DNA from: Aplysia californica
Lineage: Eukaryota
Length of the DNA: 64,000 bases
Direction: 5' to 3'
Assembly (NCBI RefSeq): GCF_000002075.1
Contig: NW_004797368.1
Location: forward strand, 1,017,240-1,081,239
The position numbers and the translations under genes were made by a program. Each line of letters opens with the position of its first letter. The stretch's first letter is position 1. Below, piece by piece: positions 21,601-55,600 of the stretch. The notes under the pieces are model-generated. The model saw only the letters and a list, made by a program, of their open reading frames with translations. It was not told the origin of the DNA and did no database searches.

Positions 21601-24600
21601 ATCCTCTCCACCTATCCATACAGGGGAGAAAAAAAAGTGATAGAGCAAAATCCAAACCTTGAGGAAAACACTGAAAATGGACAGGCAAAACCTTCAGGAG
21701 ACTAACAAGAACAAATCAACATGAGCTTTCAAAAGCCCATAGTAGTACGTAGTGAATCTATCCCCATATTGACCTTTACATCCAAATAGATATTCACGAT
21801 CGCTTGCAACTACGCGGTGGCCATTCATGCAGCGAACACCCCCCCATATGGAAATTTTGCGGGAAAAGGGAAAGAGAGGCTGCATACTATAAAGAATGTT
21901 TACAGACCCGCACTTATGCTGTGCTGATCGTGTCAATCACTATGCAGTATTTGATTGGCACGATCTCCTGTTCTGTCTCACATTGTCTTACAAAAACTAG
22001 TTATTCCACTGGTCATTTTTTTGCACCCTTAGCAACTGAAATATGACAGATCACCACAAGGAGTCACTCAAAAGCTTGAAGCCCCCTGTTCCAACTTGCA
22101 TCTCACAACAAACGTTAATTGGGGGGGGGGAAAGAAAGAGAAACACAAACAGCAACAACAGTAGTTTTACCACATTCTTACCTCCTCTTCACTCAGTTCA
22201 CCAGCCCTTTTTGTGGTATCCACATTGGCCTTTTTGCAGACAACGAAGGCAAATCTGCGACCAACACCCTGCGAAATTAACCGAAAAAATTATTGGCAAA
22301 AATATTTCCTCACAGAAAAAAAGAAAAGAAAAAGAATACATTGATTAAATTTTTGGAACCCAAAAACCTAGTATGTACCATACCGCCAGTATTGGACCAA
22401 CAGAACCCAAAACCTATTTTTATAAAGTAGAAGTTTTACAGGGCTCGCAACTGCATAAGGTCATATGAGCGCCAAGGGGTGGATGTCAACAGACAAGTCC
22501 CTACAGGGAATAATACTCTGCTCACCTCTCTAGCTTCAACAGCACAAAGTCTGCTTCGACTATCAAGGCACCATGGAAATAACAGTTCACAAGAGTGTGA
22601 CAAATATGAGCATGACATTGATGAATCAGCCCATTTATTATTCTATTGTGCATAAGAACTTGTTAATGTCCCCCCTTTGGAAATGCCCTAAAGACACTTC
22701 GGTAAGTAGCACCACCGAGAGTGAGTGTGTGTGTGTATAACACAGATCATTCTGTTAAACAAGATAATGTACCATAACCATAAAATGTATTTCCAATATC
22801 TGTAGTATACTGGGGTAATCTTGATAAAGTTGAACCAGTATGGTGTTAGCAGAGACAGATAATCACTTAACCTGACAAAAGGTCATTTCCTATGTTCTGG
22901 AAGTCAAAAAATGACCATTTTTACGTCACAAAGTGTCACTGAAAACATGACACGTCTATCTAGGCTACACATTTATCACAGGAAAAAATTTAAAACAAAC
23001 CACTCTACATATGAAATAACTTTGGTTTGTTTTTTTTTTCAAAAATGCTATAAAAGCATTATAATGTTGAAGGGCATTTACATTCCCCAATCTAACAAAG
23101 CTAATCAAGCTCAGAATATTATGGACAGAAACAAATCACACAAGCAGGGGATCAAAACTGCACCAATTTCTCTCTTGTGGTATGCATACTTGCCAGCACC
23201 AGTGAATTTTAACACATTACACCCCAACTCGCCCGTGAATTTCCTTTTATGCGCTCCACCCTAACTCGCCCGCGCCAACATAGCGCCGTTACAAACGAAG
23301 TCTCGCCATGACGAGACTCTAAGGCCGAGATTTTGATACGCAGTTATTGCAAAATGTTTTTTCTTCCGTTTGATACTGAAATGTTCGAGCCAGTTTTTAG
23401 TATCAGAGCCGATCGAAGAGAGATTGCGTTCCCGACTCTTCGAAGGTGTTGACTTGTTGAAAATTGACACAACTGAGTTTTAAAAAGGAAATAACTATGG
23501 GTTTGAGCAAAAATAAGCATATGACAAAAATGAATCAGATTTTGGTGAAAACATTTTAGCAAGAGTATGGGGCGCTTCAGATTGATTAGACATAAATTGT
23601 AGATCTAGGTCCTAACCGCGAGGCTGAGCGTGATGGGTCCGACCCCCCGATTGAACTAAGAACATTTTCCAACAGTTTGTGCATACATAAAGTTATATTT
23701 TTCTGATACTACATTCATTTTTCTTTGTGACTTATTTTTTCAGGATTTTTTTGAATTTAGTATTTCTAAAATGTGGATTTTAAACACTTATGGGTTCCTT
23801 TCCCTTGCTTAGGATCAAACAATGGGCTTCCCGTCCAGACCCTTAGGGTGTAATGTGTTAAAACCTTTTTTTTAATAGGACATGCTTTGTACACATTGGT
23901 ACATCTTGTGTGCATAATCATGACGGACTAGATATTCCAATACGGCATCAAATGAGTTTAAATAAAAATAAAAGATAAACCGTACAGCGCATAGAGAGCT
24001 TCGTGTTGAGTGGGAATGTGTAAAATACAAATCATAATTTATCAAATAAAAAGGCTGCGGTTATTCGTACAATAGTCAGACCAACCGTAGTTAGTTGTCC
24101 GTACAATAGTGCGAACAACTGTATTTAGTTGTCCGAACAATTGTGCTGTGCGAATAACTAGTTATCCGTACAATTATTCGAATTGGTTGTTGGTGAGCTT
24201 ACATATTTTGCCTAGATCTAGTTGTAGGTTCTAGTGGTGGGCAAGGACTTACATTTTGAAGAACTAGACAAGCGGGTTAACCATTTATTGAAAACTGGTT
24301 CTGACTTGGACCTGACTTAGATTTGAGCGCCCCCCCCCATCTATGTATACACCGCCTCGCCTCCGCCCCACATCTGCTAAATACGTAACCTAATTTGGGT
24401 CTAGATCTTGCAGAGAGACTTGGATTTGGCTGAGCCAGCCTCCTCATCTCACAACACTGCTCTTCCACCTCGCCACTTCTTTCTGCGTTATCCTCTCCCA
24501 ACCGCACTTCGTCCACTAGGAAAGTGGGCAGAGTTCTATCCAGATTACAATCCCGTAAACTTAAATAGGTTAAGCCACAGGCAGGAACTGGATACCCAAC

Positions 24601-33100: not shown

Positions 33101-36100
33101 TTGAGCAGTGGCTGCATGTCCACCTACGGTCAATCGTATTCTGAAGAAATGCTGACCCTGATGAGTGTTTGTGTATGGCCATAACCTGCCAACCGGGAAG
33201 ATGGAAAGCTGTGGAGAACCGACCTGTGCAACTATAACTGACGCCAGAGAATTCTCCTTATTCCTCTCCCTTTCCCATGTCTGCTTCCCACTTTATTAAA
33301 TCAGACTTGGACTATTTAATTTATTTTTAGTTTAAATGCCTAGCCTAAAGGAAGACCCCCACTCCCCTTCTCATGAATTTCAGGTTCTACCAGAAATAAA
33401 TTTGAACCTGGGAGAGCTGGACTTCACATCAGAAGATTTCCTCCTGGATGAAGTTGATGGTAAGAGCTGACAAATAAGTTTTTCATAAAATGCTCTAAAA
33501 GTTTTACCAGTTTTGACACGAGACATAACTTGATTTGTCTTTATAGCACAAAAAGTGGTTTGCATATTTGGTCTTTGTTAATTACTGAATTTTAAATTTT
33601 TGCTGATTTACTGTATAAATCCAGTCGTTCATGGATGAGGGAAGTAATAGAAACATTTCATGTTAACAAGGTAACGAATCTACTTTTTATTATGTTGTGA
33701 ACTTTACCTCTGATTTAAATCAGATGATGAAAACATATTTTCATGTTTTCCTTACTCAACTGCATATTGTCAAAAAGAAGAGCTGCACTGCCATGCTAAT
33801 TTTTTAAAACGCTGCTATTAAGGGAGAAAGGCCGTTCATCCTAATGAAAGTGTTCTCAGATTTGAAGCTACAATTTAGAAAAATGTGTTACCTGCAAAGA
33901 CAACTGGAGATTATTAATGTATTGCCTGGAGAGAAAATTGGAGAGTATTATAGTTATAATATGACATCAAAGTCCTACTTTAAAGGACTGAGATGTTGTT
34001 AAGAAAATACTGCTTTAATTTTTTAATAGATGGCCTTTAGAGACCATCATCCTTTTGCTGACTTGGCTACCCCAGAAATGTTTAGCTTGTAGGGGTGTCG
34101 TGAATTTCTAACAAGCAAGACAGTCATTTTTGTTATCCTGATATAATTTAATCAAGGAAAAATATTCTTTGAACTGCATGCTGGTCTAGCACGGGAACAC
34201 AGATGGGAAGAATAGATGCAAGACCTAGCTGAAGTAAGACAACGATCTGGTACAGATGACCTTGTAATTTATTAGTTTTTAAAACTAACCCGGGAATTTC
34301 TGTGTTGTTCAGAAGGGATTCTCATAGTATTAACTAATCTTAATTTATTTGTTAGTATTCATTGTATCATTCTAGTATAACTTGATGCTTGTATGCTATA
34401 GTTTATGCAATAATCTGCTTTTTGCCACTGGCATCTCTGATAAACTGCTGTATTTGTAAGTAGAATGTTTTCCTCTGTATTGCTGAAATGATAATCGAAT
34501 ATTTAATTTATTCAGTTCACATTCAAGAAAACCTTGAAGACGACATTGTGAAAGAAGCCCTCAATAAGGTAAGATTGCAAGATACAGTGGCATGTTTTGC
34601 TTGATGTTGTTATGTCATGGTTAGTGTTTAAGTGCCGTTTCTTCTACCTTTTCTTTATAGTGACTAATCTATTGAAAATTTTGTAAAAATGAACAGGACT
34701 AAGATGTTACTAATAAATTATGTCAGTTTTATTCATTAACCTTTGTTACTGTAACATTGTAACATACAAAGTTCTGGATTGTTGTTACCTCTCAGTGTCT
34801 GTGCTGAGCGGGAGCGTCACTGGCTTGTGGAATGTACTGACCTTTTGCAGAGTCTGTTGTATACATTGGAAACTGGTAATGCCAGTTGAATAGTGTAAGA
34901 GATTGTTGTTGGTTGGTAATGTGACTGCAACACTCCTTGAGGAGACTGCCCTTTCTTTTCTATTGCAGTTTTTCCTGAAAATGGAATATTTTTTCCAGTT
35001 AACGGTCAAAATGTGTAAGGGTTGATGTTTTATTCTACTTTTGTAATGACGTGAATTGTGTTAATAGGGGTTTATATCGTTTAAATGATCGTCTGCATAT
35101 ATGATGTAAGTCGGTGTCTGAATAAGAATATTTTTCACTGTGTTGATATGTTTAAAAAATGATGCTGTATTTATTTACTTTCAGGGTGTTGACTTACGAC
35201 AGTATTCTAAAGAAATTGAAAATGATCTTCAGACAGTGGAGAACGAATCTGTTCAGGACTGTATCCTTTAATGTTTTGAGGTCGTTCTGACCTGTTATCT
35301 CTGTGTGTGTACATGTGTGCTTGTGTGCTTAGATGTGTGTGTGTGTGTAAAAGAGAGAGATGGGAGTAAAATACCTGTAAGTTGTGGAGAGATTGGAGAA
35401 TGTAAAGTTGTGATACATTTTGTATTGGGGAAGAACAGTTGGTTGCCCTTAATCTTTGACTCTGGAAGGAAAAAGAGAATTGAGGATGAAGTGACCTTTA
35501 ATTGACCTTAAGTGCATGATGTATCCTTGACTAGTGGCAAGACATCAAGGAGAGCCAAAATATTGCAAGTCTTCACAAGCAGATTGCAGCCTGCGACACC
35601 ATCTTGGAGGTATGATTCTACCTTGTTGTTTTTCAAGCCCACTCAACTGTCAGCTGAATTGTTTTAGTAATGTTCATAGTCCCGTGTCTGTTATGATAGA
35701 GTGGTTTTTATATGACTTCAAAAAAATTCTTTTCCCTATGGGATGGATATTTTGTTGTCGTTTTTGTTTGGACAAAGTGCTCATGTGACTTACCAATAGC
35801 ATCCTTATACTCATGGCTATTTTTCATCTTTTACCCGCTCCTACAGAGGCTTACAGCGGGTGGTTGGAGGGCTCCACCGGTAGTCCCACTTCTTTACTTT
35901 CCCTCTGTTGATACTGTCTGTCTATCTTTTTTTTAAAATCCAGCACTAAAAGACCATAATGGTGTAGATGTGCTTTTCTTTACTCAAACAAACAAGAGGC
36001 TTGCATGACTTCACTGTTCGGTGAAAGTTGTTTTTATTCTGGATGTAATAACTCTCCAACATTTGTCTGTCCCACCCCAGATAAAGGAATTCCTAGACGA

Positions 36101-39100
36101 CTCAAAACTAGAATTTTTTAAAGTCCGATAACCAAAAGTGGTCCCCAAGCAGCAAAACTTTTGGTTTTCCAGAAGACTGCTTTGAATCAAATGGAATAAC
36201 AAATGAAAGTATCCTGGAAGAACTTGATTCACAGCAAAGTATGTTTTATGAGATCAGCAAAAGGAGACTCATGTACCTTGGTCATGCTAACAAATGTAAA
36301 AACAGATCTGATCACATCTGTACTGGCAGGGCAAAGTAGAGGCAATGAGAAATAAGGGAATGCCCCGTACTCTGAACATTTTAAACACATAATCCGTCAG
36401 TGGTCTTCAACTTTTTGAAGTAATTCATCAAAGCAGAGATTGGGAAAGATGGAAACTTGTTGTTGCAAAGGGTGGGTCGCCTACGGACGAACTCAATCAT
36501 GATGACAGGTGACCTAAGACAGACATCTAAGCATAGATACCACCACTTTTTATATCCAATTTATTATAATTAGGCGTTAGTCAAAAGTGTGGGTGGTTGA
36601 AGGATGCCCCTGGTAGATCCCACTTCTTTACTTTTCCTCTGTTGTTTCTGTCTGTCTGTGTGTCTTACTTTTTCCTTGCACTAATTAACCATTATTGTGT
36701 CGATATGCTTCTCTTTAATCAAACAAACAAACAACACATAAACTGAACTAAAAGCCAAAGCCCGGTCTCCTACAGTGAACTGTTGTGTGTGTTTCAGAGG
36801 ATGGAGCAGATGTTGAATGGTTTCCAGGGCGATTTGAGCAGCATCAGCACAGAGATACAATCTCTGCAGGACCAGTCTATCGCAATGAACATCAAGCTCA
36901 AAAACCGACAGGTGAGAGGAGCATGTCCCCTGTACGCAGGCGTGTGTGTGGGGTGTGTATGGGTGTGAGTGTGGGAGTTGAATCTGTAACCACAAAACAG
37001 AATGTGATTCAAGTAAGATAAAATGTATGACCAGGTCCATTTAATGTGTATTTAGGTATGTTGGACATGTGTCTGGCTGGGTTTACTATGTCAAGCTGAA
37101 TGAAATGGGTGTTATGTGTGTCTTGGTATGTATGATGTGTATTCAGCTTTGCAGAATGTGTGTCAAGGTAGATGCATTGTGTGTCATGCAAGATACAGTG
37201 TGTGTTTATTGTGTAATTTCTTATGTAAAATGTATACTTAGTGAGGCTGAATGCATTTACTACCGAGAACAATGTGTTCACAGCTGTGACTGTCCAGCTA
37301 GGCAGAATGTGTATCCAACTGAGTAAAATATGTGTCTGGATTGATAGGACACGTATCGATATGGGAATAACATATGCCATGAAACGCAGACTATGCTTGC
37401 TGTTGTGTTTGTGTATGGATTGAAGGATGTTTGTCTACCTGTGTATGTCCTAGTCCTCACATGAGGAGAAGAGGCTGTTTCTGGAGGTGGCCTCAGTGAC
37501 ACCAAAGGCTGGTCTGGTTTATTGTCTAGCTGTTTTATTATGCCCCTTCGACGTAAGGTGGGGGTGGTTGAAGGGTGTCACTGCAAGAGCCAGTTTCTTT
37601 ACTGTCCGATAATTTTTTTTGTCAACCTTTCTTGCTCCTTTCCAGCACATAATGACCATCTGTATGTCGGTGTGCTCCTTTTTACTCAAACATATCAATT
37701 TTCATTATGCTCAATCGCTATTTTGTATCCTCTGGGAAAGTAGCAAAAGTGATAGATACAAAGGGAAAAGGGACTGTATTTGTAGGGGTCAAAGAGAAAT
37801 GTAAGACTCCTATAGCTAGATTGGAAATAGAAAAACATCCTGAGATTTTAGGGGAAAGTCCAGTTATGATGAAAATGTGTATAACATATACATACATGTC
37901 ATCCTCTATGTTCCAGGCCATCAGAGGAGAGTTGAGCCAGTATGTGGATGAGATGGTCATCCCAGAGTCTATGATCACGTGAGTTGCTTTCTCTCTTATT
38001 TAGTGGGGAAAGTAATCTTCAAAGGGCGTAGATTATCTTTTTAATTTCCTTTAAAATATCAACCTTGCTAACTTTAAACTGAAGCTAAGCCCAACTGTTT
38101 TAGAGTTAAAGCAGGAGGCCAGCCTATGGTTGGTGGGGACAATAGTCTGGTTGTTATTTATGCTTCTTTCTAGCCTTGTTCTTGTCCTAAACTGTTTCGG
38201 AATGTGTGACTACTAGGGTGTAGGATACAGCTCCCCTCACTCTACATGCAGTCAGCCATTGGTCAAAAGACTATGAAAACAGTCCCGTTGCCCCCACCCA
38301 CCCATCCCCCTTGTCTGACCAGCACCCACTTCTGCTCAAGAATAAGCACTGAGTGAATTCCCTCAGTATAATGAGACAGCGAGTACATTAGTTTGTCCTT
38401 GTCTGACTGCTGTCTTGGCCCGCCTCCCTCCCAGGTCCATCCTAGAGAGCCCAGTGACCGAGGATGACTTCAAGGAACAGCTGCACGAGCTCAACCACAA
38501 GATTAACTTTGTCAAGGAGCAGTCCTTCCGGGACGCCCGCGCCTGCCTCGATGTCAAGGACATTCTAGAAAAACTCAAGATTAAGGTTCGACATTTTAGA
38601 GGGGGGAATAAAAAATACTCTTCATAGGGTGGGGCTGATTGTGAATATCCTTTGAAATTCCAAGGATCCTTTACATTCTGTTCCCGGCTATAGAAAGCGA
38701 AAGATTTTGTCACTATGTTTGTGTTTGAACCCCAGTAAATTGGCTGCTTGCATTGTATGCTTCCCAGGAAGTTAGAATTGCTATCAGGTCTGCTGGGATA
38801 ATAATGTAATATTTAAAGCACATAGAACTTGCTGTTGAGCGGGAATTTGCATTATACAATTTTTATATACAATTACAATTTATCATTGTTATAAATCTTT
38901 TTAAGACAGTTGATGATGTCCTGTGTGGGGACATGATGACAGTTAGTTTGTTAACGCCCGGGAATTTCCAGATAGCGTTCAGGAATTTCCAGATGTCTTA
39001 CCGTGTCTGGATGGTCCTCCTAATTGTGATAGCAGAGACTGGGGATCTTTAGAAAACCTTCTAAATAGGAGTATTAGAAAATTAGACAGCAGAGCAGAGA

Positions 39101-42100
39101 CAGAGCCACTGACCCCACTATTGTGCAGGTAGAAAAGTGAATGTGGTTTGGGATGTCAGCCTGTGGTAACTTTATTCTTTTCCTAAGGTCCCAATGTCTA
39201 TGGTGTATTGTATACAGAAGATATGAGTTTGATTCCCACATGGGAACGTTTTTGTTATCGAGAATCTCCATTATTCTGCTTGGATGCTGTATCCCACTCG
39301 GGGCAAAACAAATTTCATCTTAAGCACATAGTCTGTGATTAGCCCATCTCCTGTTTTTTTCCTAATTTTTGTTTCATCATTGGTCCTCTTGCAGGCCATT
39401 GGAAAAATTAGGGAATTTTTGCTGCAAAAGATTTACGCCTTCCGCAAACCCATGACCAACTACCAAATACCTCAGAATACACTGCTCAAGTTCAGGTAAG
39501 AATTGCTCTTTTCCTCAAGGTTTTTGCACTCAAGAATTGTAGACAAGTGCCCTACTTAGAGCAGTTGATATCTGGTTCTAGGTTTTACTTTGTCTACAGC
39601 CGCTTAATGACTTTTTGTCTAACAAAACTAATTTGAACTTGCATGGAATATTCTGACCAGAAAAATCACACCAGCAGGGACTCGAAACTGCACCATATTC
39701 TCTCTTTTGGTATGCGTACCTTCTTGATACCAGAGAAATGATTCTCTGAGCTAAAAAAAAGAGTAAGGTGCAAAATGTATGATAGTCGGGACAATTTCTA
39801 TTACGTGTTTGTACCCCTAACCTCATAGACTGTCATCTGAGCTTTTGGAATGTTAACTATACAGCTGTATGATCTGTACATGACCCTCAAAGACAAGATG
39901 CGTTCTTTTCATTTTCTTTGTGTTGTTGATTTAGAATCTTGAAAAAAAATGGATTTTTTAAAGTTATCTCTTTAAAGAAATTTTGTTTAGCACGACAGTT
40001 ATTTTTCTGTTTTATCCCACAAACTTGTAGTGAATTCCTGATGGTTTTTGTCATAAAATCTTCAATGAATTCCTGATATTTTTGTCTCAGAATCTACAAT
40101 GAGTTCCTGATGTTTTTTGTCTTAGAATCTTCAACATTTACTTGATGCTTTTGTCTCAGAATCTTCAATGAATTCATGATGTTTTTTCTTAGAATCTTCA
40201 ACATTTTTACTTGATGTTTTTATCTTAGAATCTTCAATGAGTTCCTTTTTATTTTGTCTCAGAGTCTTCAACAAATTCCTGATGTTTTTGTCTCAGAATC
40301 TTCAATGAGTTCCTTTTTATTTTGTCTCAGAATCTTCAACAAATTCCTGATGTTTTTGTCTCAGAATCTTCAACAAATTCCTGATGTTTTTGTCTCAGAA
40401 TCTTCAATGAGTTCCTGATGGCCAACGAGCGCCATGTGGCCAAGGAGGTGCGGGATGAGTACGTTGAGACCATGAGCAAGATCTACTACTCCTACTTCAA
40501 GGGCTATTCCAGCAGGCTCACCAAGCTACAGGTAGGTCACAGCTCACAGAGTCTCTTTTAGTTCTTTCACTTCTTGGGTTAGTTTAGTTTGGCTTGAGTG
40601 AAGAGCAGCACACCGACACAATAATGAAGCAAGACTGAAGGCAAGAGAGTAAGGGGAGACCTAGCAGAAGTTGTGAACAAGATATAGAAGCATTGTTTGG
40701 AGCTGAAACGATTGAGGCTGGCAGAGTGACAAGAGACAATGTTGTTTTATTGCTGAAAGGTTTGAGAAACAACATCCAACTACTGAAAAAGCCAAAAAGA
40801 AGAAGTGGTAGAAAAGGGAAAGACTAGTAGTGAAGAGCACGAGAGGGGGGAGGGTTGAGAAGTAATGCATGTCGGTGGCACTGTCGGACCGCCTGCTCAT
40901 CTCTCAAAATTCTCGGAAGTTAAAAAATGACAAGGTATAAGAAGCTACCTATGTTCTGAGCATTTATAAGGGGTTTTGTAATTAGACTCGGTCAGCCATG
41001 TCTCTGAAATTATTATGTAAAACTGTGTCTTGCCACGTTCCTTCGTGTACGATGAAGAGAAGTGTCTGGGGTCTGCTTATTTCACAGATCTTTTTGTGAT
41101 GAACTTGATAAGTCTACTCTCTGTCAGTTAAATGTTGAAGCGATATTTCTCGTTTTTTTACGAGCTGGTTTTACTGCTTCATTTTGTAATGTGATAAGAT
41201 AACTAAACTCAATTTTGCAAGCTCTTGACCTTCTCTTCAAGCGATCTTAATTGTGGCGATTGGGGTGCTAAACATTTGCATTCATTTTCCTTTTACTAGC
41301 TATCTAGTAACAAAGAGTAAAGCGTCAAACACCAGTCTTGTACTAGTCTGTTACCATCAGGCACTGGCAGTCAGTACACAGAGGGCTCAAGTGGGCCTTG
41401 GTTCTAAATACAGTGGAACTTGTCCAAGACAACCACGCATTATCGAGGAGAAGAGTGGTCATCTTTGACCGGTGGTCCTCTTGAACAGTGTCATTATAAT
41501 GCACAAAAAGATGCAAAGTGGCTAGTGGGAAGTGGTTGTTTGTACAAGTGATTGTGTTGGATAGGGGGTTGTTGGAGTCGCTTCTACTGTACTGTGAAAT
41601 TTTATTATCATGGTGGGATCAAATAACTTGATGACTTCCGCTTTTTTTTTTTTTCAACATATATTGAGAAAAAGACATTTGTCTAGTGCTTTTAAGATAT
41701 AACTTTATTGACTTTTTAGTTGTGGGCTGACCTTGTTCATCAGTTTGATGAACCATTGTTTTTTGAGATTTTTGGTGTTGTTTTTTTTCACCATCACTCT
41801 TTCAGTTTCCGTGTGTTTGGAGATCATTTTGTTAGTGTTTTTCAAGGGGAGGAGGTGGATGAGAAAAGTCCATTATATGATTCGAACAACATTATGATCA
41901 TTTGTGGTTGAATATTCCTAGCTAATAATAGCGACTTTTCTGAACTTTCACAGTCTTTCTGTTCAGTTTAGCATCTATGTGCGGAATTTTATACATAACT
42001 AAACTATTCTGCTGTGGATGTTTTGTCATCCTGTCTTCACAGATGTGTCTCACCATGCCTTTTGATTTATAGGGAATCTATTTTCTTTTTGATTAATGTT

Positions 42101-45100
42101 CTGCAGATATTTTCTCAAGACTGTTTGCATTTATCGTTATCACTCTCTCTCTCTCTTTTTGTCTGTGCTTTTAACCAACTTACTTTCATTCATAGATTGT
42201 GAGTATATTTTACACATTTTTGTGAAATTGTTGTGAGCCATTGTTTTTCTTTTGTTTCTTTGTGCAGACATTCATTTCTCCCTTTTTTTTTATGTAGTAG
42301 ATTTTATATATGCACTTTCTGTTTTCAGAGATATGTTCACCATTGTCTTAGGTTGTATTACTAATGGGTTAGTTGTATGTTGTGGAGATATATTTCACCA
42401 TTACCATTACCATTCATCATATCACTGACTGCTTTAATGTGTGTCTTTGAAACAGTTTCTCAGGTGTTCACCATTGTCTTTCATTGCGTCACTGATCTGT
42501 TACATATATGGTGTCTAGATAAATTTGCCATTATCCTTCATATTATATCACTAACTTTTAAGATGTATTTTGTCTAGATAAGTGGTCCATTATCCTTCTT
42601 AATGTCACTGACTGGTTAGAAGTAAGTTGTCTAGATAAATCCTCCAGGTTTCATTTTTGTTCTGTTTAGTATTATTGAAAAGCTTCAGACTGTTAAGATT
42701 TTTTTTTTACTTTACTTTCTTTCATCATCCACACCACATTTTTCTTATTTCTTTACTTACGGAAAAACACAGATTTTGACAGGCGGCTGCCTTATTTGTC
42801 TCTATACATTTCTTTCTTAACCGTAGCCGTGTGATAAGTGTCGTGGCTTTGTTGTTGTGTTAAGTATACTGGAAGTTGTGCAAGGAACGAGGTAGACCAT
42901 GAACTGGTATCTCTTTAAATCTTTAAATAACATTTTTTCATCTTTTGGGGGGGGGGGGGGGGGGGGGCTGGTGTAATCTAGCTCACAAAATTCAGCTTGC
43001 ACTGTGGAAATAATATAGAGGCGAACAAGATTTGGAAATGTCTGATGAATGCCAACTGTAGATGCAGAAATCCGAGAATCTGCGGCCCTGTGTCAATATG
43101 TGTCGTGACATTGTGGAATCAGGCGCTGGTCAATTTTGGGGACATTTGGAATTACTGATATCATTGTGAAGCTTGTTCATTTGTTTTCCTTTTTATAAAA
43201 AAAATATACCCATCTATCTCAAATACAAGTCAAAGTATTTGCAATTGATTGGGGGGGGGGGGGGGGAATGGGTGTGTCTGGTGTCAGATAAAAACAGCAA
43301 GAAAATGGCTGCCTAAGTTTGGTGACTTCGAAAGCTTTGCGTCTCCTTGGAAACTGCAAGTTTATATTTTTTGTGCCTATGATTATTATTCAGTAAAATC
43401 CCCACAGAAATGTGTTTTTAAGTAGACATAAAAAGTGATGATCAAACAATGAAAAAAAAGATTAAAATTGTGCAACGGGTGGAAAAATGCTAGTTTCTTC
43501 GATTTCATTATCTTGAAGAGCACCTGATTAAACCACAATGCCACACATATGATAATAATAGATTGAATTTTCATCAGTTATGTGTTCTGGAAACTAGGCT
43601 CTATGAGCTGAACTATTTTATTATAAAAGTTTTCTGTGTTCTCTGTTGTTGCTTTATTTAGAGTCATAAAATTCTGAGCTCAAACAATGTTCCTCTGGTT
43701 AAAGTCTTGTATGTAAATGCTTAGATGTCACAGTATGTGTAACTTGACAACGTCGTTGTAGGCCTACTGTCTTGTTTATTTGTGTATGGTTTCTTATCTT
43801 GTGTGTACAGCTGCTTCGTGGGTGGTTGGTGGGTGCCCTAGTGTGATCTGCTCCTTCTTTCCTATCAAACATCTATCATCCTTATCTCTCCTCCTTTTTT
43901 GTGTTTGTTACTCTCTTGTAACATCTCTAATCTTCGGCACTTTTATGACCTTATTGTATTGCAAGTCCCGTAATATACACTTACTTGAATTAAAACAAAT
44001 ACTTGCTTCTTATTGTGTTGTTACTGCTACTGGCGGTTTTTGCATGTACAGAAAAGAATTCTTCAGTGAGGCTTTGCAGGCTTGAGTACTCTCCTGGTGA
44101 CCAGTCAGAAAATTTCCTGGGCTTTTCCTTGTGGCATGATATCTTTGGGTTTGTGGGCTCTTTGAAACACAAATAAAGCTGGGATGTAGAGATGATCTGT
44201 ATAGAACGGGACTTAACCTGTCACTTAACACGCTTGCGTTTTAACAAGTTCTCTTTGGAAAAATTCAGATGTGTGTGTGTGTGTGCATGTGTAGTTAGTT
44301 TGTTGTTTTGTTATTGTTTTTTTCTTGGATGTGAATCTTGGATCTTATGTTGGAAAAGATAAAGCCCAAACCTAACATTGCTCACACTGACATCTTTGCA
44401 TTTCTCATTCTCACTGGACAGTTGAAGCAGGAAGTCAATTCATTCTCCCATCAGTGACTTTTTTGTTACCCAAAGGAAGGGTTGTCATTCTCCCAGGAGT
44501 GACCTTTCCATCCCAGGGAATGGATGTCGGTGACTTTTCCATCCCATCCTAGGGAAAAGATGTCATTCTGATAGTGACTTTTTTTTTTATTAAGCCAGGG
44601 AATGGGAGGGGGGAGTGGGCTACTTTTCTATAACAGGGAGGGTATTATTTGCTGGGCTATAGCGTTGACTGTTGTTGTTACTGACGTATAAACTTGCAGA
44701 TTCCTTGTGAAGAGACCCCGGAAAACTTGTCCACCGTGTTACGTACCATCATTCGACCTCGATTCTTTTCTAAAATGGTAACAGCAGGATGGGATTCTTT
44801 TGTTTTGGGTTGTTTCTTCCTTTGCTATATCCGGGTTTTTCTGTTTGCCTAAGGCAGTTCTTCAGCTTTTGACTGAATGCGGTATTTCACATATTGGGAG
44901 GTTCATGCTTGCCTGTAACTGTAAATGTGGGTTCACTATGGGTTTTGAGAAATATATATTTTTGTTACATGAGGGTATTTCTTTGAAAACTGCAGTCTTT
45001 GTAGAGACATGATTTTACTGTCTGAGTCATATCCTTAGCAACACTCTTCACTGCTTCCCTATATTGGTTCAGATTAATGTCAAGAAAGCACTTACTGTGG

Positions 45101-46620: not shown

Positions 46621-49600
46621 TGTGTGTGTGTCAGGAAAAGACCTCTCAACCGTATGAGACTTAAAGAAAATGCCCTCTCCATTCGTGTGATGTCATCAAG
46701 CATTTTTACAATAACTTACAGTGCAGTGCATTGTCCAATTTGTTCTAGAAACCCCTGCTTCTTAAAAGTTTTGCTCCTAAGGAATTTTTTTGTTTTTGTT
46801 TTGTGATTACCTTCTTCGTTATCAACAATTTTTTTTAATTCTTTGTCATCAGAGACAGTTAGCAAAACTGGTAAAGTTTTTCCCTTTCTCCTTTTCATTC
46901 TCTCTCTCTCTCTCATCTTTTGTTATGCTGTATTATATGAAACATTTTTGTTTTGCTCTGCGGACAAGGGAGATGGGTGCTTAGTCTAGCATCCGAGCTG
47001 TGTCGACTGTCAGTCTAGTGTGTCACTGGTCACCTGGAGACTCCCTTCTTTCCCTCCTCCCCCTTATCTTACAAGACACCTCCTCTTCCTCCCCAACCTT
47101 CTTTTGCTCTTTCTCCTTTTCTACTTTCTTTTCCACTACCTTCCACCTCTTCATTTGCCCCTCCTCCTCTTCAACCATTTCCATCTGTGCTACTAGCTCA
47201 ACTTCTTCCTCCTCTACATCACCTCTTTGCCGTCCTCATCTTCCTCCTCCTCCTTCTCCACTACCTTATCTCCCTACTTCTCCTCTTCCTCCTCCTCGTC
47301 ATTCTCCTCCTTTTCCTCTCCTCCTCCTCTTCTTCACCCTTTTCCTTCTCCTTCTCTCATTCCCCCTTCCTTCCCCCTTAGTCCATACAGATCTGTGGTC
47401 CCGGAATGCTGCATTGTGGTGGTCTGGTTGTGTGTCCACCCCTTGGTTTGGAAGGTGCACAATGTAATTTTTGTTTCTTTCCCACTGCTGGGGAAGCCTG
47501 GCTCTCAATTGGTGGAAGGTTTTTTTAAAAACTTTTTTTTTCTTGTCTCTGGTGCATGGTTTTATTGTTTAAAATTATTGGTCAGTTTGTTTTCTAAATA
47601 AATACTCTACGACATTTTATTTACGACTTATCTTTACCTAGTTTGAGCCACTCAGTGTAGTGAATGTATGTATGTAAAGGTATAAGCTGTCAGTACCATC
47701 TTCCTCTGACTATGCGATGCATGTAAAAGATAAGTGGTCGACTAGAGGTGTGATGCTGTCATAGTCATTGTGAAATCTTACATAGAGTCTAACACACACC
47801 ATATAGCGAAATCAGCAGGTCACAGAAATCTTTTCATTGTGTACGAATTTTGCTATGTTTATGTTTTGAATACATGTGTGTATATATATATATATATATA
47901 TAAGAATGGCATAAAAGAAAAACGGGACCTGAAAATCGGTTCGTTTTGTGCGTGTTTGACAGTAACTTTGTTTGAGTGATGAAATACATAGGTTATTACG
48001 TGCGGGGCTTGATTGATTACAACATTAAGTGCTGGGAAACCAAGCAAGATAAACTATAGAGATACCTTGTTCTGAGGAAGTTAGACCTATTGTGTTACCC
48101 TCTAACCACTGACCCTGAAATAGATTAAGGTCATCGAAAAATTATTTGAATTTAACATTTGACTTTTAACAAAACTTTAGGAAATGTGCGGAATGGTGTA
48201 AATAGAGATAAAGGTTTGTGTGTGTCTAATCACTCTTTCTACCCTGTCTTTTAAGGGAAGGGGAGCAGTTGTGTACTGGTATCTGTGGTTTAGTGGCTAG
48301 GCACTTTGCTGTTGCATGTGGGAGACCTGAGCTTGATTCCCCAAGTGGGGAGAAAATTTTTTTCGAGCATCTCAGTCTTTCTGCCAAGATGTTGTATGCC
48401 TCTCAGCCATGGCTGGCCCTAACAGACAGAGTCAGAAGCTTTACTTCTAAATGATGTAAATTGTCTTGATTTGGGTGTAAAAATACACCTGCATTAAAGA
48501 AAAAAATGAAAGCGGTTGTATCTGTGTTGTCCAGTACATGTTCAGTTCCACTGACTGGTAGGTCATACTTTTTCTTTCCCGAATTTCTGCTTTGTTTTTG
48601 TCTGTCTATCTTTCTCCCAGCACTAAGTGACTATTTTTGTCAGTGTGCATTTCTTTACTTAAAAACTATTTAAAAAAAGAGTAATTGGGTCAGGGAACTG
48701 GAAGTAGGAAGAGATTGGTTATTAAGTAGTCTTTTTTTCTCATGAAGGTTCTTTGTTTAAAACTTGTTGCTATGGCTCTGGTTACTCATTGAACTATTTC
48801 TTCTCGTTGTGTCTGTTGGCTTATGTGTGGTTGATCATGTGGGCGATGGGTCGGGTGGTGTGTGGTGATAGTGACGTGGTGTGTGGAGTGATGGTGCTGA
48901 GTGATGTGGACAAGTGTGACAACCACTGAGAGATGTGGTAATGCACAAGATATTGTCAAACTAACATTGAGTCACTTACTCTCTTCTCTGCTAACCATTG
49001 TCGCATGGCGGGTCCTCAAGGGTTGTTATGTTGCTAGGCTGAACTGTCTCTTGTTCAAGGAGGGTCTATAGAGGTCACCCATCCAAGAGTCTCCTGTGTT
49101 GCTTGACTTTTTTTAGAAAGTTGTTCTCAGACTCAAGACCTCACTTTTTTTTTTTCTTCATCATCAAACATTTTAGAAAAATTAAATGAGCCATGCTTCT
49201 TTTCTGTTTCAGTTTGAGGAGGCGGCGACCAGAGATGACCTCATGGGGGTGGAGGACACAGCAAAGAAAGATATCCTTGACTTTGTGGTCTGTGGGATGT
49301 CCGTGTATTGAGTCTCTGTGTTACTGTCGCTGTGTGTTTTGGCCATGTGCTGAGTCAGCTGTTGTGTCCTGCTTAGTTTGTGTTTGTTTTTGTTTGAAGT
49401 CCATATGTCTGTATATTTGCCTCAAATGTGATCAAAGCCAAATACTTTCTATTCATGTCGCTCTTCACTTACGGACCAGCCGTTTAAATGAACACAGACA
49501 AGTGCTTTGGTGTGATGTGCGCCTTCTTTCTTATCCAACATCTATCATCCTTATCTCCCATCCTTCTTTTTTTATATTTGTCACTCTTTTGTAACACCTC

Positions 49601-52600
49601 TGATATTTGGCACTTATACGACCTTATTGTGTTTCAAGTACTCTAAAACTTTTACTAAAAACTAAACACAAACACACATGGGAACATGAATGGACCTTGA
49701 CCCGGCCTCAAGCTTTTTCTCCTCCAAGCCAGCCATGAAGAACCGCTCGACGGTGTTCACGCTGGGCAACAGAGGGGACGTCCTCACCACGGAGCTGGAG
49801 GCTGCCGTCATTGTGCCACACGCCGCGGCCAAGACAGAGACCAGGGTGAGGGGATGGGGGAGTGATTGTCTTGTACTGTGGAGGGGGAGGAGATGGTGCA
49901 GGAGGAGGAGAAGAAAGAAGTAGTTATGGTTCAAGAAAAGGAGGAGAAGCAGGAAGTAGTTACAGTCAAAGAGAAGGAGGATAAGGAGGAGAAACAAGAT
50001 GCAGTTATGGTTGAAGAAAAGTAGAAAAAAGAGGAGTAGCGGGAAGAAGTGGTCAAAGAAAAAGGGGAGAAGCAGGAAGACATAGTGGTTTGAAGAAAAG
50101 GAGGAGCAGCAGGAAGGAAGAGGGAGAAAAGAAGGAGGAGATCATGGACTAGAAGGAGGAGGAAAAGAGGGAGAAGAAAGAAAAGGAGTGGAAGCTGAAA
50201 GTGTAGTTGGGGGAGGGGGAGGAAGGTGTTGTGGCTGAGGAGGTGAGAGGGACAGTTTTGTGCTTTGTTCAGTGTGACAATCTTACTAGAAACAAATAAT
50301 AATAATAATGGATAGCATTTGTATAGCACAAATCCCCGCTCAACAGCAAGCTCTATGCGCTTATCTATAGTACCATGTACCAAGTCAGTTTAGTGTATAA
50401 CTGATATGCTCTCAAATGTCTTTTACACTTTTGAGTTTTTCGTTATATTTTTAAAACTGAGTAGGCTATGTATTTTTTTAATGAAAGCAACATTTATCAA
50501 CTCTTTATCCACTGAGGACGGCAAGCACCATTATTTTGTTGATACGTTTAATATTCCTCATAGGAAAAAGATTGAAGAAGATATTATATTTCATGAATAA
50601 ATATACAAAAAGCGCAAAAGTGTTTTAGAGATATGCTGTCTACATTGATTTCCGAATCGCTCATGCTCTTTACGTAATTAGCTGAGGCTGGCATTTTGTA
50701 GCCACACTAATTTAATGAAAGCTATAGACTTTGGCTATCATTTCATTGTCATCGGTACCCTGTGTGAGCTGTTGATTCTATATTTTCTTAATATTTTCAA
50801 TGTTGGCCTGTCCACAGTATTCCTTCGAGAGCATTTTCCGCAGTCTTCACTTTGCCCTGATGGACAATTGCTGCCGAGAGTATCTGTTTGTCTCCGACTT
50901 CTTCATGGTATCCGGCACTGGGGCCCAGAATCTCTTTGAGAACATCATGGGGAAAACCCTCACCATGTTCCTGGTCAGTGCCCCTACTGGCTTTATATCT
51001 TTCTAATTTGATTGTTTTTATTGGTCTTAAATTATGGTTGTTTAGATTGAGCACATTATTTTTATATTTATTTTTGCCATTATTTTTATTCTAATAAATA
51101 AAAACAGAAATGGGTGTGTGTAACAAGGATTTGGTTGGTTTTAGCATCTAGAGCTGTCTGCTTTTGTAATGTTTGCTGAGCTGTTGTCAGCCGTGGAGCA
51201 AAGTTCAAGAGTAGTCACTAAGTGTGTTTTGTGGGTCTTTTTTGTTCCCTTCCAGAAACTGGTGGAGGACAGTGTGCAGGAGTGCTATGACTCTATCGGC
51301 ATCTTCCTGTCGGCTCATGTTGTCTACCGCTACCAGAGCATCATGGCCAAGCGATCTATTCCAGCTCTGGACAGGTGAGTCAGCTCTGAAGGTCAGCGCA
51401 TCGTTCTTTCATTTGTGGGACGTTGTCAGGCTGTTTTTCACTGTCCAGTCCATTCGGTGTTGTGCTGAGGGGTGACAGGGTAGTTCTCTCTCTGTATGTG
51501 CCCAAAATACTGCAAAATCCTACTGTAGTTGTGAACAACTCCAACTCTGATGGGCTTGTTGTCAGATTTCTTGTCTTTTATCTGTATCTCCGGTCTCTTT
51601 TTACCTGCGACTCAGGTCTTTTTTTGTCAGCAACTCGGGTCACTTTTTATCTACGACTCAGGTCACTTTAATGTTGTGACTGCCTCCCCACCCCCACTCC
51701 CCAGACATGATGCCCTAGTATTACAAAAGTCAGTTCGGGTGATTTGATGTTAGCATTATTGTTAGCTATAACTCAATCTCTCTATTGTCGTCTCTTTCTA
51801 CCGCCCCCTTCCCCACCCCCTGCTGGCAGGTACTGGGAGACAATTCTGAGCAACCTGTGGCCTCGTTTTGAATACATTGTCAGCATGAACATCCAGAGTG
51901 TCCGGGAACGTGACCCCAACAAACTGGGCCACATCGACAACCGACCACACTATGTGAGTTGTAGCAGTAGCCTACCTTTGATCACCCTTTTTATTTTCTA
52001 TTTTCAAAGAGGTTCCTATTTTTTAATAGTTTCTAATTTATAAGCCTTTTTAGAGATTCAAAATATTTTGAATTGTAAAATGTTATGGATCAGTGAATGT
52101 GTGCCTTTCATCAGGATACACATTCATTTGAGAACATGTTTTGTGAGTTCTGTTGCTGTAGTTTGTTGTTTCTCTGCACAATTAAAATTTTTTTTGGTTG
52201 TATTTTGACACTTGTTTTGAGATGAAAGATTGTTGAATTGTTTTGTCTAGACTCCCCATTGGAGCATTGCTGCGACATCTTGTCAAAAATGCCTTTAAAA
52301 AAAAATTGTAATGATTTACTGTTAAAAGTTTTGAACATACTCCATGTGAAGTAGAAGTATCTGTTATTTTGACCGTTAAACACCATCATTTGTAGTTTTG
52401 GTTTGATGAAAGGAAAAGTAAGAATATTTACCATTATAGCTCCTTTCATTTTATTTTTTTGTAAAGGTCACCCGCAGATTTGCTGAGTTCTCGGCAGCCA
52501 TCGTTGGCATCAATGTGTCATATCCCAACGAGCGAGTGAATCGTGTCTTGGGTCAGCTGCAAGCCGAGGTCGAGAACTTCATCCTCAAGATGGCGGCCGA

Positions 52601-55600
52601 GTTCCCACAGCGGAAGGAACAGCTCATTTTTCTCATCAACAACTACGACATGATGCTCAGCGTGCTGGTGGTGAGGCTTCGCTCTGACTTTTTGCCCTTG
52701 CATACTGGTTTATTGTAGACTGGGTTCTTCTCAAATTGGTTCTTCATTGAACTGGTTTGTCAGACACTGGTTCATTATAAAATTGGTTTGTTACACACTG
52801 GTTCATCCGGTTTGTTACACTCCTGTCCATCATAACTTGGTTTGTCACTCACTGGTTTATTTTGAATTGGTTTTTCACATACTGGTTCATCATTATACTG
52901 GTTTGTCACTCACTGGTTCGTTTTATAAATTGTTTTGTCACGCACTTGTTTGTCACACACTGGTTTATCATAAACTGGTTTATGAAAAACTTGTTGATCA
53001 TAAACTGGTTTGTCACATACTGGTTTATCATAGACTGGTTTGTGGAATACTGGTTCTTTATAAACTGATTTGTCTCAGACTGCTTCATCATTGAACTGGT
53101 TTGTTACACACTGGTTCATCCGGTTTATCAAGCACTAATTCATTATAAGTTGGATTGTCTCAAACTGGTTCATCATAAGCTGGTTTGTCACACACTGCTT
53201 CATTATAAACTAATTTGTCATAAAATGATTTGTCACAAGAACGCTGGTTCATTATAAACTGGTTTAGTGCACACTGGTTCATCATGAACTGGTTTATCTC
53301 ACTCTGATTCATCTGAAACTGGTTTTTCATAAAAAACTGGTCCATTGCAAACTGGTTTGTCGCACACTGGTTCATCATAAACTGGTTTTTGGAAATCTGG
53401 TTCATCATGAATTGGTTTGTCACACACTGGTTTATCCTAAATTGGTTTGTCACACACTGGTTCATCCTAAATTGGTTTTTCATAAAAACTGGTCCATTGT
53501 AAACTGGTTTGTCGCACACTGGTTCATCGTAAACTGGTTTTTGGAACACTGGTTCATCACAAGCCGCTTTGGCACACATTGGTTTGTCTTATTTAATCTG
53601 TGTCATCGTTATTAATTATGTTCACTGTCAACTTCACACCATTTTATTGATTTGCCTGAAGTTACCAAAAAATGATTTAGCTCTTCAGACTATGACAGAT
53701 TTTGTACTTTGTATTTTGTACATAATATGGCTGTATGGTTGTTCTATTATTTTGTGTATATTTTTTGTGTTATGTCAGGAGCGGACATCGGACGACTCAA
53801 AAGAGGCTGAGATGTACCGGGACCTTCTGGCTGCCCGCACGCAGGAGTTTGTGGAAGAAATCCTGGCCCCTCACTTTGGCGGGCTTGTCACATTTGTCAA
53901 GGACGCCGAGGTCTGTCTGGAGAGAGGTCAGAGTGACAGACTGCAGCAGGAAGAGAGTAAGTAGTAGACTCCCAAAGCTGGATTGATTTGGAGGGGGGGG
54001 AGGGGTTGTTCAATTCAATGATTTTTTTCTTTAAACTTATTTTTGTATTGCCTGTGGTATTGGATTTTTATTTGTTAGTTTGTCAGGTTGTATGTTTTAT
54101 TTGGGGGGGGGGGTTGTTACATGTCATACTGTATAAGACGACGCCCGTCCAAACTGGCAACTTTTCTCCACTATAATGGATGGTTGTCTAAGAAAGTTTC
54201 CAACTGTAGTTCCAAGCTCGTGCCCGCCCAGTCCCAAGCGACTGCCAGCACATTTGGAACAGGCTCTGACATTTCCAGGGCAGGTGGAACCGACAGACAG
54301 AACTTTAAAAATTCGCATATATAAGCGGGACAGAATCGGCTACCTGTTGACAAGTCTACGCCTTTGACTTGGGGCTCATACGATCATCCAGCCCAGTGCA
54401 TTTCAAGGCGGATACTAGAAACTAACAGGACATGGGGTCTAGGAAGCAACGGGTTTAATTAACGCCCTCCTCATTATCGCTATTTGGTTATTTATGAGGT
54501 GGAACCTCCGAATTTAATGTCCGTCTCCGATGGGACCGAGCCAAATAAGTTGAAAGTTTTGAAAAGTTCACAAAACAGCCCAAATTCAAGGACACCCAGT
54601 CTGGAATTCGAACCATGGCCATCCCCTCTATAGTCCAGCATGGAAGGGGGCCTAAATTATACACCTTAAAACAGCCTTGAAAAGCAAACTGTAATTTTAA
54701 TGGTTAAATTGTTGCACACTAATCGACACTATTTAGATTACTTAGGAGGCATCTTCGACCTGCCTGTCAGAACCAACTCGAACGGGCTGAGCGGGATACA
54801 ACGTCCCAGCAGAAAGTGAATGAATAAAATATGTACTCGATAAAAAGTCTCCATACAGGAATCAAACTTTTAACTAACACTGACCGGTTGAAACACTGGG
54901 TATTATTTGTTCTGTTTGTTTTTTTGTTTTGTTTTGTTTTTTGTTGTTTTTTTAAGGGGGGGGGGTGTTCCTGGTTAAGCCTTTTTACGGCACTTGCAAC
55001 ACAATTAGGTCATATATTATAAGTGCCGAAGCTTAGTAAAAAGCACCAAAAAAAAAAAAACACAAAAAAGTAGTAGGAAAGATAAGGACGATAGATGTTT
55101 GATAAGAAAAAAGGAGCAAACCACGCCAAAGCACCCGCCAACCACACATCTCAAAACNNNNNNNNNNNNNNNNNNNNNNNNNNNNNNNNNNNNNNNNNNN
55201 NNNNNNNNNNNNNNNNNNNNNNNNNNNNNNNNNNNNNNNNNNNNNNNNNNNNNNNNNTTGTGTGAGTATGAGAAGAGGCCTGGTATCTCAACTTATTCAA
55301 TTTTTGTTTTATTGATGAATTTAGACTAAGACTCGTTAAGATCTATTGTAATATTTTCATTTTTCTTGTCTTTGTTGTTTTTAATATGGTAAAGAAAAAT
55401 AAAAGTTGGCCTATATAATGTGGATTTTCTAGGAAAAAAATCATTGTACAAAAAATACAGACCTGGCTGATGGTGTTTAAAAGTATTTGTTCCCTCTATG
55501 GTCATTTGATGTAATTTATGATAACAAACTGGAGCTGATGATGTGAGTTTATATTTCTCCCTGTGTCTCTGTCCACAGAGCGAGTGCAGCAGATCGTGCG

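Follow-up and report, generated by a model that had tools for sequence, protein, structure and literature searches.

The VPS52 Gene and Its Tenth Coding Exon

The 64,000-nt window of Aplysia californica DNA analyzed here carries VPS52 on its plus strand. Nineteen coding exons between 27159 and 56471 translate exactly to P0002, the NCBI protein "Aplysia californica VPS52 isoform X2," and the 44 residues encoded by 40400-40531 match that protein with 100% identity. The earlier note on this DNA had named the gene VPS52 and the exon under study exon 10, and the exact exon-chain translation bears out both assignments. A protein search with the exon-10 translation returned 70 candidates, 69 of which passed an E value of 0.001. 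At the domain level, exon 9 matched the Pfam family Vps52_CC (E=5e-11), and exon 10 gave a subthreshold match to Vps52_C.

We then compared proteins across the exon 9/10 junction. An alignment of 12 sequences that extends to sea urchin, fish, and fly is gap free at this junction. Within the set of 70 proteins, 41 matched a motif across it, and in every one of these the length is that given by the 39495-to-40399 join, with no indel. This uniform length makes 40398 the sole acceptor that yields the conserved protein. VPS52 isoforms X1 and X2 differ by one residue located after exon 10, and both join exon 9 to 40398.

Intron 10 (8.7 kb) contains a candidate 3-nt microexon at window positions 42196-42198 (+), a single Ile codon with a long pyrimidine tract and AG upstream and a GT donor downstream. 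Intron 10 has no other site of this kind, and the codon explains the additional Ile in isoform X1 (P0070). The contig of run X18 described below includes these 3 nt between exons 10 and 11. The molluscan VPS52 proteins P0009, P0017, P0019, P0021, and P0022 have inserts of 5-6 residues where X1 has its extra Ile.

Two further introns were recorded. Intron 11 (49271-49711, +) has an AT-start donor with an ATCC core and a branch-like motif near its end, and AT-AA termini were required to reproduce P0002; these features mark it as a minor-spliceosome-like (U12) intron. Intron 4 (35261-35541, +) is a GT-AG intron that has the same donor core and branch-like motif as intron 11 and lacks a pyrimidine tract; it is a second U12-like intron. 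A literature search for VPS52 together with minor introns or U12 found no paper. Elsewhere in the window, the A-over-T skew is positive in most bins of positions 1-24000 and negative across VPS52; the positive skew suggests that a minus-strand gene may lie upstream of VPS52.

A Minisatellite Built from a Splice Acceptor

Tandem Repeats Finder reported a single array at 40031-40420, with a period of 34, 11.4 copies, 79% matches, and a score of 455. Cut at its AG positions, the array resolves into ten full units, U1-U10 (40057-40398), each 33-36 nt long, with a 5′ partial copy before them and a final 22 nt after them that are the start of exon 10. Each unit combines exon-10 nt 1-22 with the 12 nt that end VPS52 intron 9. 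The repeat finder and the unit cutting agree, confirming the previous description of a 34-bp unit that joins the intron end to the first 22 nt of exon 10 in about 11 copies. The features of the locus are as follows.

39395..39495, plus strand: VPS52 coding exon 9, 101 nt, from the exon chain that translates to P0002; its GT donor begins at 39496
39496..40398, plus strand: VPS52 intron 9, 903 nt, GT..AG, from the skip in the X18 contig and the exon chain
40031..40420, plus strand: 34-bp minisatellite "mirage," 11.4 copies, from Tandem Repeats Finder and unit cutting
40031..40056, plus strand: 5′ partial copy, a 12/13 match to exon nt 10-22 followed by an intron-end copy with AA
40057..40228, plus strand: units U1-U5 with decoy AGs at 40090, 40125, 40159, 40192, and 40228, from the pairwise matrix and scores
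40229..40364, plus strand: units U6-U9, a duplicated 68-bp dimer with 1 difference; decoys at 40262, 40296, 40330, and 40364
40365..40398, plus strand: unit U10 (same sequence as U9), holding the acceptor in use (AG at 40397-40398) and a 32-nt AG-free zone
40399..40531, plus strand: VPS52 coding exon 10, 133 nt, from the exon chain; its GT donor begins at 40532

The AG is intact at the end of ten copies (40090, 40125, 40159, 40192, 40228, 40262, 40296, 40330, 40364, and 40398), and the eleventh copy position, 40056, has AA in place of AG. The AG is kept in nine of the ten upstream copies, the partial retention of splice signals that is a trait of mirage arrays. Tandem units that span an exon-intron boundary define mirage, or splice-junction, minisatellites, and the unit length of 33-36 nt falls inside the 10-160 bp range given for published mirages (PMC3087553). 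Past the array, exon 10 nt 23-133 are unique sequence with a G+C content of 0.55, against 0.30 for the array.

A 20-nt pattern across the unit junction had five exact matches in the 927-Mb genome, every one within the array; within the limits of the search tool, the unit is therefore local, with no dispersed family. The surrounding 611-bp region had one match in the genome, the tool's repeat counts being lower bounds. Two other arrays in the window, 24066-24141 and 33882-33950, have the same 34-bp period as 40031-40420. The three sequences are unrelated, and the common period is probably a coincidence.

Splicing to the Last Acceptor

Four runs were examined over 38400-40600, of which one was informative (X18, which consists of contigs and whose run kind is not on record). 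A transcript-like X18 contig of 3135 nt and depth 26.3 joins 39495 to 40399 across 903 nt with GT..AG borders and continues into exon 11. X18 held no contig on 40028-40394, though a depth-3 contig from intron 8 was retained. Because rare variants are lost from contigs and transcripts with premature stops would be depleted by NMD, X18 informs on the major form alone. The three runs of raw poly(A) reads, X21-X23, yielded 10-12 reads each, all at an unrelated repeat (38741-38773), and were uninformative because exons 8-10 were uncovered. Normal splicing is thus the major form in the one informative run and in both database isoforms, with rare or NMD-degraded forms outside detection. The X18 contig and both isoforms use 40398 only, and that site stands as the productive acceptor, as had been proposed.

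Separately, 38741-38847 in intron 8 is a fragment of an abundant repeat, on which X18 contigs stack to a depth of about 2800-7700.

Acceptor Strength and Site Choice

We scored the acceptors with a weight matrix trained on the 15 other VPS52 acceptors, a small set with a leave-one-out median of 7.8. The real acceptor at 40398 scored 7.4. The decoys of U1-U5 (40090, 40125, 40159, 40192, and 40228) scored 7.2, 4.8, 7.7, 1.2, and 2.8, respectively, and those of U6-U9 (40262, 40296, 40330, and 40364) scored 11.4, 7.4, 10.7, and 7.4. By this 15-site matrix, five of the nine decoys score at least as high as the real site, two of them at 10.7 and 11.4 compared with 7.4, and three are clearly weaker. 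Since 38 of the 1429 other intronic AGs of VPS52 also score as well as the real site, decoys that go unused are ordinary in this gene.

The decoys resemble the real site to very different degrees. Those at 40296 and 40364 are identical to 40398 over 32 and 45 upstream nt, respectively; on the downstream side, the match to it ends after 18 and 9 nt. Decoys 40125, 40192, and 40228 have only the AG in common with the real site upstream, and they score lower. The earlier note had called all of the skipped acceptors near-identical, a description that suits 40296 and 40364 and fails for these last three. The same 32-nt intronic module precedes 40296, 40364, and 40398, so the intron side offers no basis for a choice between them.

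Skipping the upstream acceptors had also been described as contrary to first-AG selection. First-AG scanning, however, starts at the branch point and not at the start of the intron (PMC1431707). A YTNAY branch-like motif lies 12-20 nt upstream of the AG, in an AG-free zone, in all ten modules (predicted by motif only), and the real site has its own at -15 within its 32-nt AG-free zone, where the motif predicts the branch point. With scanning that runs from the branch point and a branch-like motif in every module, the first-AG rule is unbroken, and the question becomes which module is engaged.

Only 40398 precedes the unique exon body, at 133 nt from the donor. Use of a decoy would give exons of 167-441 nt, whereas the 17 internal exons of VPS52 measure 53-204 nt. 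Given the unique G+C-rich exon body, the nearness to the donor, and these exon sizes, we infer that exon definition, one of the explanations offered in the earlier note, is the likeliest selector of the last acceptor. RNA folding of 40031-40531 gave no structural masking of the decoys beyond that of shuffled sequences (z=+1.58).

History of the Array and the Role of Chance

Units close to the real acceptor are almost uniform. U9 equals U10, U6 equals U8, U7 differs from U9 at one position, and the pair U6-U7 differs from U8-U9 by one base. U1-U5 differ from one another at 4-10 positions. Neighboring copies have been homogenized, as in tandem-repeat turnover, and the 5′ units are more diverged; from these sequence comparisons, turnover appears to have been recent near the acceptor, and the upstream copies would be older. 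Repeat arrays can begin by slippage between short direct repeats, and the 13-nt near-copy of exon nt 10-22 that opens the array is as expected if such slippage started it. The 5′ flank of the array ends in a pyrimidine-rich run with an AG at 40030, right before the first partial copy; use of this AG would lead to an immediate stop. It may be what is left of an earlier intron end, or it may be there by chance.

The 29-kb VPS52 gene holds 11 arrays with a period of at least 15, and seeding them uniformly places an expected 0.56 on one of its 36 junctions. This figure flatters chance, because 0.19 of it is due to one array with a 152-bp period and because long arrays are rare. Five or more copies are found in 2 of the 11 VPS52 arrays and in 3 of the 53 arrays of a 138-kb sample (200 kb of the same contig with 138,201 non-N bases, used for array density only, its exons being unannotated). 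A longer, degenerate array of 15/30/60-bp periods at 52737-53585 fills most of VPS52 intron 16; it starts 67 nt past the donor and spans no junction.

Comparison with Known Junction Repeats

The VPS52 array is a member of a published class, the mirage or splice-junction minisatellites, and not a new puzzle. In amphioxus (lancelet), "mirage" minisatellites occur in the globin gene BflGb6, Adh3, troponin C, and PGBD5 (PMC3087553, PMC3902484). Like the BflGb6 mirage, the VPS52 array repeats in tandem an intron 3′ end together with the 5′ part of the next exon; as in the amphioxus mirages, the splice signal survives in many of the copies but not in every one, and normal splicing was seen there (PMC3087553). 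The two differ in host, a gastropod vs. a cephalochordate, and in build, with 11 short copies here compared with 3-6 copies of 150-160 bp in BflGb6 (PMC3087553). Length polymorphism has been shown for the amphioxus mirages (PMC3087553).

Human genes offer similar cases. In the CBS allele 844ins68, 52 intron nt and 16 exon nt are duplicated, the downstream acceptor is strongly favored, and the mRNA is normal (PMC7490669, PMC2630376). The VPS52 array likewise duplicates an intron end with the first exon bases, and in the major form seen the downstream acceptor is used and the mRNA is normal. However, 844ins68 has two copies and is a segregating human allele whose mechanism has been studied, whereas the VPS52 array has ten. 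Human junction minisatellites include the F7 intron-7 37-bp VNTR, IFI6 (6-16), CBS intron 13, LMNB2, and PDGF (PMC1557585). As in the F7 VNTR, the terminal unit of the VPS52 array spans an exon-intron boundary, a row of pseudo-sites is present, and the site beside the unique exon body wins. The F7 repeat, which was dissected with 50 constructs, is on the donor side, and the VPS52 array is on the acceptor side (PMC1557585). IFI6 and CBS intron 13 additionally use two pseudo-sites, those nearest to the real site (PMC1557585), whereas no use of the VPS52 decoys was seen in X18. In the part of PMC10078293 available, we found no acceptor-array case.

Interpretation of the Array

We consider it likely that the array is a neutral mirage minisatellite in which the last acceptor is used and the spare ones are likely ignored via exon definition. 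Slippage or unequal exchange would have generated it at this locus, and turnover may be continuing near its 3′ end. Each unit would form a complete module of branch-like motif, U tract, and AG, and the module chosen would be the one that lies closest to the exon-10 donor and has the 111 nt of unique, G+C-rich exon sequence after it. Rare mis-splicing would be cleared by NMD at little cost, so that the AGs would decay at the background rate. The BflGb6 mirage, CBS 844ins68, and F7 VNTR precedents behave alike and support this neutral reading. Counting against it are the five of nine decoys that score at least as high as the real site, the normal-sized exons that the two nearest decoys would give, the rarity of long arrays, and the use of the nearest pseudo-sites in human IFI6 and CBS intron 13 (PMC1557585).

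The predicted products of the decoys bear on two further readings. Of the nine upstream AGs, 40125 and 40296 are in frame and seven shift the frame; all nine lead to predicted premature stops, which lie 113-386 nt before the exon-10 donor, in the position expected of AS-NMD targets. The in-frame decoy 40125 runs into a stop at 40169-40171, and the TGA at 40382-40384 is reached only from 40296. The claim that each upstream AG either shifts the frame or reads into that TGA was therefore correct as to the seven shifts, with all nine ending in stops, but the TGA serves a single decoy.

One such reading, which we regard as unlikely, is that splicing leaks with no selection involved: decoys 40364, 40330, 40296, and 40262 would take a measurable share of splicing, their products would be degraded, and the cost would be tolerated. 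These four decoys score 7.4-11.4 compared with 7.4 for the real site, and every decoy stop lies at least 113 nt before the exon-10 donor. The two nearest decoys give exons of 167 and 201 nt, inside the 53-204 nt range of the gene, which makes some leak plausible; exon length on its own does not bar these two. The pseudo-site use in IFI6 and CBS intron 13 would be a human parallel. However, X18, at a depth of 26, has no contig on the array yet retained the depth-3 contig of intron 8, and mirages are reported as not disturbing splicing (PMC3087553, PMC3902484).

Less probable still is the NMD rheostat raised in the earlier note, in which copy number or tissue factors would determine how much of the VPS52 pre-mRNA goes to NMD, with the decoys kept by selection; we think this very improbable. 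Premature stops from all nine decoys, an intact AG in nine of ten upstream copies, and young, identical copies adjoining the real site would all suit it. However, the stops are no sign of design, because the 34-nt period moves the reading frame on from one copy to the next and the unit has a TGA in it; they are presumably an unavoidable result of such a repeat. The survival of nine of ten upstream AGs compares with 8.0 expected at 10.7% substitution per site (P=0.37, a test of low power on nonindependent copies) and fits neutral-like retention, with no sign of selection for or against the decoys. No decoy-derived transcript was seen among the steady-state X18 contigs, and RNA structure, as noted, did not exceed that of shuffles. 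We found no positive evidence for the rheostat. Its strongest form, in which the four strong decoys would divert a copy number-dependent share of VPS52 pre-mRNA to NMD and act as a heritable dial on the dosage of the GARP/EARP trafficking complexes in an animal that serves as a neurobiology model, is equally hard to credit.

That the array is false or much inflated by assembly is less probable again. The assembly is the sole source of DNA sequence for the array, U9 and U10 as well as U6 and U8 are identical, and the number of such identical copies could be miscounted. However, most unit pairs differ at 3-12 positions, indels included, which misassembly would not create, and a search for an N gap in or near the array found none. 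The substitutions and indels that separate the units make it unlikely that the entire array is an artifact.

Recursive re-splicing, in which the tandem acceptors would be used step by step to reach the normal mRNA, was also proposed before and can be dismissed with near certainty: although on paper there are 14 mini-exon routes that stay in frame and avoid stops, the array contains no AG/GT ratchet point, no GT arises where exon 9 is joined to a decoy, the 21 GTs of the array all score -1.9 or less compared with 0.9-11.9 for 16 true donors, and no two-step route recreates the exact mRNA.

As a likely neutral mirage, the VPS52 array extends the amphioxus-type arrays to a gastropod. It also provides a natural test substrate for splice-site choice: with the same 32 intronic nt before three of the acceptors and two decoys that outscore the real site, the choice can depend only on downstream context. 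This choice on the acceptor side mirrors the F7 model on the donor side. If it were true that an NMD leak scales with copy number, the array would matter more.
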